52,282 nucleotides of DNA from a virus (IMGVR_UViG_3300043747_000021:1-52282); one strand, 5' to 3'. Counted from the stretch's first letter, positions 31,123-31,491 are shown. A program made the numbers and translations. The notes: generated by a model not told the origin, from the sequence alone.

Positions 31123-31185
31123 GGTATATGCCGGGCCTCCCGGTTGACGCCGGGCCGTGTAGGCGTAGACTACACGTGACTGCGG

Positions 31186-31491
31186 CGCGGCGCAAACCGC
31201 GAGATGTGGTCGTAAAATGGCGCGGCGAGAACCGCGAGTGGGTAACGCGATGTGCGGCGCGGCGCAAACCGCGAGCAAGTCGCCGCAATCCAGCGCGGCG
31301 AGAACCGCGAGTGGGTAACGCGATGTGCGGCGCGGCGCAAACCGCGAGGACGTCGAAGGCGAATAGCGGCGCGGCGCAAACCGCGAGAAGCTGTGCATGA
31401 CGGACGCGGCCGTAACCGCGAGGGTTGAGCGACATGCGGCGCGGCGCAAACCGCGAGCGGCGTGGATGATCGACGCGGCGACAACCGCGAG
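31186..31491 (+). repeat. Palindromic-motif array C: 9 copies of CGCGG-N4-AA-CCGCGAG, period 34-39 bp
   Basis: Starts at 31186, 31221, 31258, 31294, 31331, 31370, 31405, 31440, 31474. Confidence 0.95.

Follow-up and report, generated by a model that had tools for sequence, protein, structure and literature searches.

Oriented arrays of a 21-nt hairpin unit around the predicted divergent early promoters of an uncultured soil phage

Why would a phage repeat one short hairpin dozens of times around the point at which its early transcription units part, and does such a hairpin act as RNA or as DNA? The question is raised by the IMG/VR record IMGVR_UViG_3300043747_000021, where 36 of the 38 copies of a 21-nt hairpin unit fall within a 4-kb early region (28538–32615), mostly in tandem arrays of up to nine units. 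The window analysed is the whole stretch of 52,282 nt, which represents the whole virus: its first 266 nt recur at its end (99 % identity), and in the nearest related record the tail gene found at the end of the window runs directly into the genes found at its start. The genome is thus circular or circularly permuted and comprises ~52.0 kb when the repeat is counted once; it is the complete genome of an uncultured, podovirus-like soil phage with ~62 % G+C. A codon-usage gene call distinguished two large divergent transcription units, which part at ~31160 and converge at 14.0–14.1 kb. A preliminary description of the locus had noted a switch in hairpin polarity at this parting point, beside a very regular 36-nt sub-array, and had proposed either an RNA function or polar DNA sites around a loading centre. 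The element is real, highly non-random and lineage-specific, and most likely exerts its action on the early transcripts or by way of them. The reading favoured here, to which we assign a probability of roughly 0.37, is that each unit serves in cis as an RNA hairpin module within one of the two divergent early transcripts and is bound by a factor that recognises its sequence.

In its sense orientation the unit reads CGG-CSCGG-CGNNAA-CCGSG-AG, with a 5-bp G+C stem enclosing a 6-nt loop. A weight-matrix scan of the whole genome retrieved 38 copies scoring above 15 bits and one extra match of 10.1 bits that lacks the stem, while 20 shuffled genomes yielded between zero and five matches above 10 bits each. 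Similarly, the exact 19-nt pattern, allowing at most one mismatch, was matched 23 times, compared to no matches for the same pattern read backwards. The stem is perfectly paired (5/5 pairs) in 38/38 copies and occurs in three versions, namely CCCGG/CCGGG (25 copies), CGCGG/CCGCG (12 copies at four loci) and GCCGG/CCGGC (one copy), with both minority versions changed on both arms. Stems with mixed arms do not occur (0/38), while arithmetic from the weight-matrix copies predicts ~16 were the arms to vary independently. The conservation extends to unpaired positions. The stem is followed by A in 37/37 core copies and preceded by G at positions -1 (33/37) and -2 (34/37), the first loop position is C in 34/37 core copies, and loop positions 5-6 are AA in every copy found without requiring AA. 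Three loop positions are free to vary, 23/38 loops match xGNRAx, and the near-invariant positions amount to 16/21, stem bases included. Fixed non-palindromic bases thus flank a palindrome, and these would not be needed by a symmetric dimer site. Pairwise identity is 78 % within the 21-nt units and 25 % (random level) in the following 12 nt, which indicates that the units are old and under selection, and not merely recent copies.

The polarity switch at 31160 is borne out by the scan. To its left (28538–31157), twelve of fifteen copies are in the minus sense and three (30188, 30270 and the weak 30920) in the plus sense, while all 21 copies to its right, from 31183 to 32615, are in the plus sense. 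The switch falls between the first leftward gene, with its ATG at 31122, and the rightward operon. When compared with the flanking genes, 32/38 copies are co-oriented, five (array A) are ambiguous and one (30920, weak) is opposite. The plus-sense units 30188 and 30270 follow the plus-strand cassette at 28868–30183, the minus-sense units follow and separate minus-strand genes, and a distant unit at 20445 points the same way as the lysis genes. Gaps between open reading frames (ORFs) are filled by the units, with overlaps of ORF ends at 20445, 30863–30917 and 30920, and with one weak unit (21206) inside an ORF. The earlier suggestion that divergent transcripts would carry the hairpins in the same sense is upheld insofar as the switch meets a sigma-70-like promoter and divergent genes, copies distant from the central dyad (30188, 30270 and 20445) also track their local genes, and stop trinucleotides in the spacers are biased to the sense strand (26 sense, 10 antisense); the transcription itself is predicted.

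Array C (31183–31491, plus strand) lies in the leader predicted at the 5′ end of the rightward early operon, and holds nine units of 17.9–29.1 bits with stems 5/5 paired, each of which carries the alternative CGCGG/CCGCG stem (9/9), as had been described. The stems start at 31186, 31221, 31258, 31294, 31331, 31370, 31405, 31440 and 31474, and the resulting periods of 35, 37, 36, 37, 39, 35, 35 and 34 nt match the earlier values exactly. The duplicated spacer is also real, and forms part of a 63-nt duplication (31220–31282 and 31293–31355; 97 % identical), while Tandem Repeats Finder describes array C with a period of 73, 2.3 copies and 90 % matches. The term 'very regular' holds with reservation. 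Over all arrays the mean period is 36.2 nt (sd 4.9; range 30–57; n=26), and the periods show no phasing with the turn of the DNA helix (R = 0.36). The 26 spacers are between 9 and 36 nt long, with most comprising 12–17 nt, are purine-rich in the sense strand, and have a G+C content of 51 %, compared to ~62 % for the genome. The 26 stop trinucleotides on their sense strand are reached by 14/2000 shuffles. All three sense frames are closed by stops in 5/5 arrays, while the antisense frames of array C have no stop in any. One spacer is common to both sides of the switch in inverted form (30408–30424, minus strand; 31822–31838, plus strand), and this duplication thus preserved its sense relative to transcription. 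As potential guides, the spacers have no match elsewhere in the phage genome beyond two 11-mers.

At the switch itself, a sigma-70-like promoter (31144–31171, plus strand; TTGACG, 16 nt, TAGACT; 9/12 matches) places the predicted transcription start a few nt ahead of array C. A promoter scan of 27000–34800 (7.8 kb) gave two such matches compared to 1.7 expected, and the evidence for this promoter is therefore its position and not its score. A weaker mirror-image promoter, read by eye, would start leftward transcription a few nt before the unit at 31137–31157. The central dyad GTGTAG-N7-CTACAC noted in the preliminary description is present at 31157–31175 (19 bp), overlaps the -10 region and is a likely operator candidate. 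A second copy with one mismatch (27422–27440) coincides with the other promoter-like match, that of the middle leftward operon; two copies compare to 0.49 expected, with 7/100 shuffles reaching two. As it occurs at both promoter-like sites, the dyad has the behaviour of an ordinary operator. The hairpin motif is distinct from it and, given this separate operator-like dyad, need not itself be an operator. These data lend no support to a loading centre surrounded by polar DNA sites, since the dyad is not unique and the replication origin, marked by the rep iterons at 33289–33363, lies elsewhere.

The remaining copies are distributed on both sides of the switch. A single unit (31137–31157, minus strand; 29.4 bits) occupies the 5′ untranslated region of the first leftward gene. 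Two units (30863–30917, minus strand) lie between the two leftward early genes and overlap the unconserved C-terminal tail of the 83-aa ORF, next to a weak CGCGG-type unit (30920–30940, plus strand; 16.4 bits), whose sense is opposite to its own operon and which represents the only clear exception to the orientation rule. An array of four units (30310–30445, minus strand) is found at the 3′ end of the leftward early genes. Behind the plus-strand cassette are two units (30188–30290, plus strand; starts 30188 and 30270), the former with the GCCGG/CCGGC stem, and between them, at ~30230, lies a degenerate minus-sense copy with a 1-nt deletion. Array A (28538–28716, minus strand) comprises five units between two plus-strand genes. 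To the right, four units (31801–31923, plus strand) separate a 95-aa zinc-finger gene from a 69-aa gene, and eight units (32351–32615, plus strand), the first with a CGCGG stem, are located upstream of a 64-aa gene and of the replication initiator gene rep (32946–33689, plus strand). The latter marks the end of the hairpin-bearing region and contains 3.6 perfect 21-nt iterons within its coding sequence (33289–33363); each iteron holds an inverted repeat, and together they encode a repeated heptapeptide in a lambda O-like arrangement. Outside the early region, an isolated strong unit (20445–20465, plus strand; 31.8 bits) is found at the 3′ end of the lysis cassette, with the stop codon of ORF 20275–20457 falling in its loop, and a weak CGCGG-type unit (21206–21226, plus strand; 17.6 bits) inside ORF 20832–21353 may be a chance match.

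Under the favoured reading, host RNA polymerase would start at back-to-back promoters at ~31160, with the first unit a few nt downstream on each transcript. On folding, each unit would form a G+C stem of 5 bp that is capped by a hexaloop, frequently C-GNRA-A, and the GG before the stem, the C and AA in the loop and the A after the stem would form a recognition surface that is read by one sequence-specific hairpin-binding factor, either phage- or host-encoded. The multimerised units would occupy the untranslated stretches, including 5′ leaders, cistron gaps and operon 3′ ends, and would keep the RNA structured and protein-coated, with control of early mRNA fate as the outcome, whether by protection from Rho loading and nucleases, by defined processing or by antitermination. 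What is observed directly is the anatomy of the units, their rule of orientation, the compensation within the stems and a stop-codon bias specific to one strand, while we infer that the arrays are transcribed, that the hairpins fold in vivo, that a factor binds them and what results from this. An RNA function is favoured by the compensated stems without mixed arms, the asymmetric fixed bases and the orientation rule, as well as by the sense-strand stop bias, the xGNRAx loops (23/38) and the presence of a separate operator-like dyad.

Several observations weigh against an RNA function. The 190 stem pairs contain no G-U and no A-U, so that the stem is nearly sequence-invariant and equally suited to recognition as double-stranded DNA, and the compensated variants may represent only two events that were spread by duplication. 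The five units of array A run opposite to their annotated neighbours, which is explained only if a leftward transcript crosses this array, while the -35-like hexamer of the rightward promoter lies inside the minus-sense unit 31137–31157, an arrangement expected if the unit were an operator. Whole arrays fold no better than shuffled sequences (z = +1.5 sense, +0.9 antisense), and the mean equilibrium-ensemble probability of the unit hairpin is 0.45 in the sense and 0.30 in the antisense strand. Furthermore, family and profile scans found no RNA-binding protein among the early genes, and transcription of the arrays is deduced here from sequence alone. A Shine-Dalgarno role, sigma-54 or ECF promoters, CsrA sites and tRNA-arm mimicry were each rejected on reading the sequence.

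Among known RNA elements, the boxB hairpin of the lambdoid phages combines a 5-bp stem with a GNRA-like pentaloop, occurs on both sides of divergent early promoters and is bound by a small basic phage protein. There are two boxB elements per genome, paired with boxA, with one nut site per early operon acting with N. The phage analysed here has a 5-bp stem (38/38) and an xGNRAx hexaloop (23/38) in predicted early transcripts on both sides of the switch, with a loop of 6 nt instead of 5 and with 38 copies, and a 47-aa basic ORF is at most a candidate for the binding protein. No N-family match was found for any of the early ORFs scanned; boxA was not searched for.

The early genes supply several candidates for a partner of the hairpin. 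The first leftward gene (30871–31122, minus strand) codes for an 83-aa protein of no known family, with one homologue (P0011; 78 % identical). In the second leftward ORF (30479–30844, minus strand; 121 aa), the first ~75 aa belong to a widespread but unnamed small-protein family (92 matches at E ≤ 0.001), for which no Pfam, PHROG or PDB match was found and tblastn against the GenBank phages returned nothing. The first rightward gene (31504–31791, plus strand) encodes a 95-aa protein with a CxxC...CxxxC zinc-finger-like motif and an acidic tail, and has one homologue (P0010; 48 % identical). Both homologues are encoded on one 3256-nt JGI contig, which is the only evident comparator and is absent from the viral collection. 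The tail of P0011 has A-G-G-Q-P-G in place of the A-R-G-E-P-G of the window, as a flip of the third stem pair might produce, although a protein sequence does not reveal the silent codon position. A very basic 47-aa ORF (32093–32236, plus strand) is preceded by a strong ribosome-binding site, belongs to no family and is a candidate nucleic-acid binder. The 83-aa protein, the ~75-aa domain and the 95-aa, 69-aa and 47-aa proteins can thus be listed as candidate hairpin partners. Comparison of nine early ORFs with Pfam, PHROGs and NCBIfam gave nothing informative except for the cassette protein and Rep. Homologues of the cassette genes (28868–30183; 114 aa and 305 aa) occur in another phage record without the motif; upstream of the shared 114-aa/305-aa cassette, positions 1–250 of record L173 contain ~50 pentanucleotide repeats (NNGGC).

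A serious rival, although rated as less probable than the favoured reading, is that the 21-bp unit is an asymmetric double-stranded DNA site for a phage regulator. Bound to the arrays flanking the divergent promoters, this regulator would silence initiation and block elongation in an orientation-dependent manner, as does the Cluster A repressor at its own sites. The near-invariance of 16/21 positions, stem bases included, is consistent with such a site, and the half-site centres, as read from the sequence, are 11 bp apart. This corresponds to one helical turn, a spacing typical of helix-turn-helix dimers. The units beside the switch cover the -35 elements of the predicted rightward promoter and of the weaker leftward promoter read by hand. 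Orientation, furthermore, tracks transcription, as outlined for stoperators (PMC9283540). In the account given there, the stoperators of the Cluster A mycobacteriophages (L5 and others) are short asymmetric repeats present in dozens of copies in short intergenic spaces, with an orientation that follows transcription, comparable to the 32/38 co-oriented units here, and with the same sequence found at the early promoter (PMC9283540). They are, however, 13-mers without a hairpin that are dispersed singly and genome-wide and bound by a known monomeric repressor, while the phage analysed here has 21-nt units with a compensated perfect stem in tandem arrays of at most nine, within 4 kb. No stoperator-type immunity repressor family was identified among the early ORFs scanned, where small unannotated proteins remain, nor was any repressor-like gene found in the early region (Pfam, PHROGs, NCBIfam), and the sole helix-turn-helix-like protein, that of the cassette, is also present (56 % identical) in the phage record that lacks the motif. 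Symmetric compensated changes without mixed arms are not expected for sites of graded affinity, the array periods are out of helical phase (R = 0.36), the stop bias of the sense strand has no rationale at the DNA level, and both promoter-like sites are already marked by the separate dyad. Plasmid centromeres of the sopC type, from which the units also differ, consist of homogeneous tandem repeats with a short inverted repeat, and are accompanied by ParA and ParB genes. The spacers between the units are unrelated to one another, and the ParA and ParB families were not found in the ORFs scanned.

An unlikely explanation is that the array RNA acts in trans, with an abundant decoy titrating a host hairpin-binding protein; a defence nuclease, a CRISPR repeat-processing enzyme, a type III toxin or an RNA chaperone are suggested as targets. 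The hairpins would then constitute a new class and act as a multivalent RNA 'sponge' that is produced ahead of other RNAs and in large amounts from the main divergent promoters, which we consider improbable. By analogy, and with little expectation that it applies, the principle would be that of the RNA anti-CRISPRs and of pseudo-ToxI, with a different target and a different hairpin. Such a role is suggested by the multivalency of the arrays (9, 8, 5, 4 and 4 units), by their position directly behind the strongest promoter-like site, and by a copy number that differs between strains. With regard to the latter, a single low-depth contig from the soil run X3 joins 31179 to 31252, and so lacks 72 nt corresponding to two array C units. 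The pseudo-ToxI locus of phage PhiTE is likewise described as varying in repeat number (PMC3475682), and repeat-mimicking phage RNAs are reported in PMC10651486. ToxI and pseudo-ToxI share with the present arrays ~36-nt tandem non-coding repeats in a phage and an expanding copy number, as presented in PMC3475682, but ToxI repeats are near-identical over 36 nt and form pseudoknots beside toxN, while only 21 of ~36 nt per unit are conserved here and the spacers are random. A ToxN/AbiQ-type endoribonuclease was not found among the flanking ORFs (Pfam, PHROGs, NCBIfam). Rfam, which covers only described repeat classes, returned no family at E ≤ 10 in 28000–33000, with the CRISPR-DR and ToxI families included, and none at gathering score across the window. 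CRISPR arrays have repeats of ~23–50 nt and spacers of ~26 nt or more. The conserved 21-nt unit and the spacers of mostly 12–17 nt therefore differ from both CRISPR arrays and Racr. The occurrence of single units at 3′ ends and between cistrons, furthermore, better suits a role in cis.

It is similarly improbable that the units are selfish or recombination-only repeats of a REP- or minisatellite-like nature, which would have spread by insertion or slippage and would provide homology for the shuffling of early genes. Recent duplications within and between arrays are compatible with this, as are the copy-number and cassette-presence variants in soil contigs, each known from one low-depth contig. 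The cassette variant, from run X1, joins 28520 to 30311 with 19 other letters at the joint. This joint, together with the homologues of both cassette genes in the motif-free phage record, forms the basis for suggesting that array A may once have been continuous with the array at 30310–30445 and that the cassette may have been inserted between them; the genes at 28868–30183 are found elsewhere without the motif. Shuffling mediated by PeSL cassettes is documented for T4-type phages in PMC2839356. According to the same source, the PeSL of phages such as RB49 and phi1 are repeated stem-loop modules of the early region that flank small orphan genes and recombine. They are, however, ~100-bp composites of a strong sigma-70 promoter and a terminator hairpin, with one per gap, while the units described here are multimerised, 21 nt long, and have neither a promoter in the sense direction nor a U-tract. 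Only two promoter-like sites occur in 27000–34800, neither of which is part of the repeated unit, and the only terminator-like match at the units (28542) is at chance level. REP/BIME and NTS/SRM elements resemble the units in being small oriented hairpins with a conserved non-palindromic flank that cluster around genes and seldom occur within them (PMC11893778). They differ in being chromosomal, in carrying a GTAG or CGTC tag (PMC11893778; PMC3733652) and in their link to an HUH transposase or a GIY-YIG nuclease acting on single-stranded DNA. The unit has CGG before the stem and AG after it and is confined to the early region of one phage as a repeat, and the GTAG/CGTC tag of the REP and NTS elements, as given in PMC11893778, is absent. 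No RAYT/HUH or GIY-YIG (Ssn) gene was present among the ~45 ORFs scanned, which include neither a cognate RAYT nor an SsnA; a TnpB-like ORF (15031–16329, minus strand) is present without TnpA. This ORF encodes 432 aa, carries an HTH_OrfB_IS605 domain at its N-terminus (E = 2e-9) and is matched by a PHROG labelled 'transposase', with no TnpA nearby. The randomised spacers and three randomised loop positions, next to 16 fixed positions, point to long-term purifying selection on the unit, and homology alone would not require a strict orientation with transcription.

Finally, the units are very unlikely to be single-stranded DNA or cruciform signals, such as N4-kind promoters for an injected polymerase, priming sites or targets of a structure-specific nuclease, given that no polymerase signal was detected in the 2889-aa, 1317-aa and 1296-aa proteins, large parts of which are unannotated, that the 1296-aa protein resembles a tailspike, and that the switch and the replication origin do not coincide. 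Compatible with such signals are the short, perfectly paired hairpin whose loop and flank bases are fixed, the invariant purine right after the stem as a possible start nucleotide, a 35-nt spacing that would fit the footprint of a small polymerase, and the largely unannotated 1317-aa and 2889-aa virion proteins. The promoters of N4 have a stem of 5–7 bp and a 3-nt loop, and three are present per genome, at the leading genome end. The 6-nt loop, the 38 copies and the circular or circularly permuted genome differ from this arrangement. The 2889-aa virion protein (5276–13945, plus strand) has an endolysin-like domain at residues 1073–1224, and PHROGs added only two unnamed families to it. Searches with this protein returned no Pfam families and no PDB matches, and tblastn of its C-terminal part against phages gave none; the nearest Atlas clusters of the C-terminal part carry LPD38/LPD39 'polyvalent protein' domains (0.86–0.87), which serve as leads only.

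The hairpin arrays thus share traits with each of the compared systems, yet miss at least one defining feature of each. Exact-motif scans of viral contigs gave single chance matches only (88 and 32 stretches), and a two-unit pattern in genome and metagenome contigs gave four and three stretches, with one full unit each. No relatives of Rep or of the 305-aa protein occur in viral contigs, and no repeated hairpin family was found at 32 loci encoding the C-terminal domain of the 1296-aa protein. Similarly, neither the early genes, the motif nor a repeated hairpin were found (0/3 whole records) in the nearest record by terminase (58 %, with a syntenic structural module) and two others. A full-text literature search, with supplementary files outside its scope, did not retrieve a described equivalent of the hairpin arrays.

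The remainder of the genome includes genes for the terminase, portal/adaptor, major head and tail proteins, with the portal sharing ~27 % identity with those of cultured podoviruses. Comparison of the early-region DNA with the GenBank phages gave no match, while near-identical or related DNA is present in two further soil metagenome runs. At the point where the two transcription units converge (14018–14134), a 27-nt unit is repeated 4.3 times (97 % matches), each comprising a G5/C4 hairpin followed by T-rich sequence, which looks like four tandem, possibly bidirectional, terminators. A 73-nt intergenic repeat occurs in four copies in the middle leftward operon (24987–25059, 25794–25866, 26742–26814 and 27003–27075), which are 67–100 % identical to the reference copy; the transcribed strand holds a hairpin with an 8-bp stem, and the reference copy terminates in a ribosome-binding site and start codon. 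With these two further families of co-oriented intergenic hairpin repeats (73 nt and 27 nt), hairpin punctuation seems to be a habit of this phage. A terminase-small-subunit-like gene (27568–28146, plus strand; PHROG E = 2e-13, with Pfam Terminase_2 just below the cut-off) is located 11 kb from the large terminase gene, and a different, unannotated 135-aa ORF precedes terL. Between this terS-like gene and array A, ~300 nt of alternating purine/pyrimidine sequence (28150–28450; (CA)12, (TG)18 and CG runs) are followed by a G8-T-C7 palindrome, and the contigs of public runs break at this tract. The 90-nt 'tRNA-Ala' called by ARAGORN at 28085–28174 overlaps the gene end and is probably false. A 116-nt direct repeat (21239–21354 and 21904–22019; 94 % identical) flanks a minus-strand 174-aa ORF (21350–21874), and the repeat duplicates the stretch that encodes the C-terminus of the adjacent gene.

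Phage early regions are the seat of host take-over and counter-defence, and most of their non-coding sequence is unexplained. In the phage described here, ~1.3 kb of a 52-kb genome is devoted to one fixed 21-nt hairpin amid sequence that drifts, which implies that the hairpin has a specific partner and confers a strong selective advantage. With a phage protein as partner, this would be a compact, orthogonal hairpin/protein pair that works in arrays, a possible tethering or regulatory tool, while a host protein as partner would point to a target new among those of phage RNA decoys. Should the units act as DNA, the stoperator principle would extend beyond the actinophages, in a palindromic tandem form.

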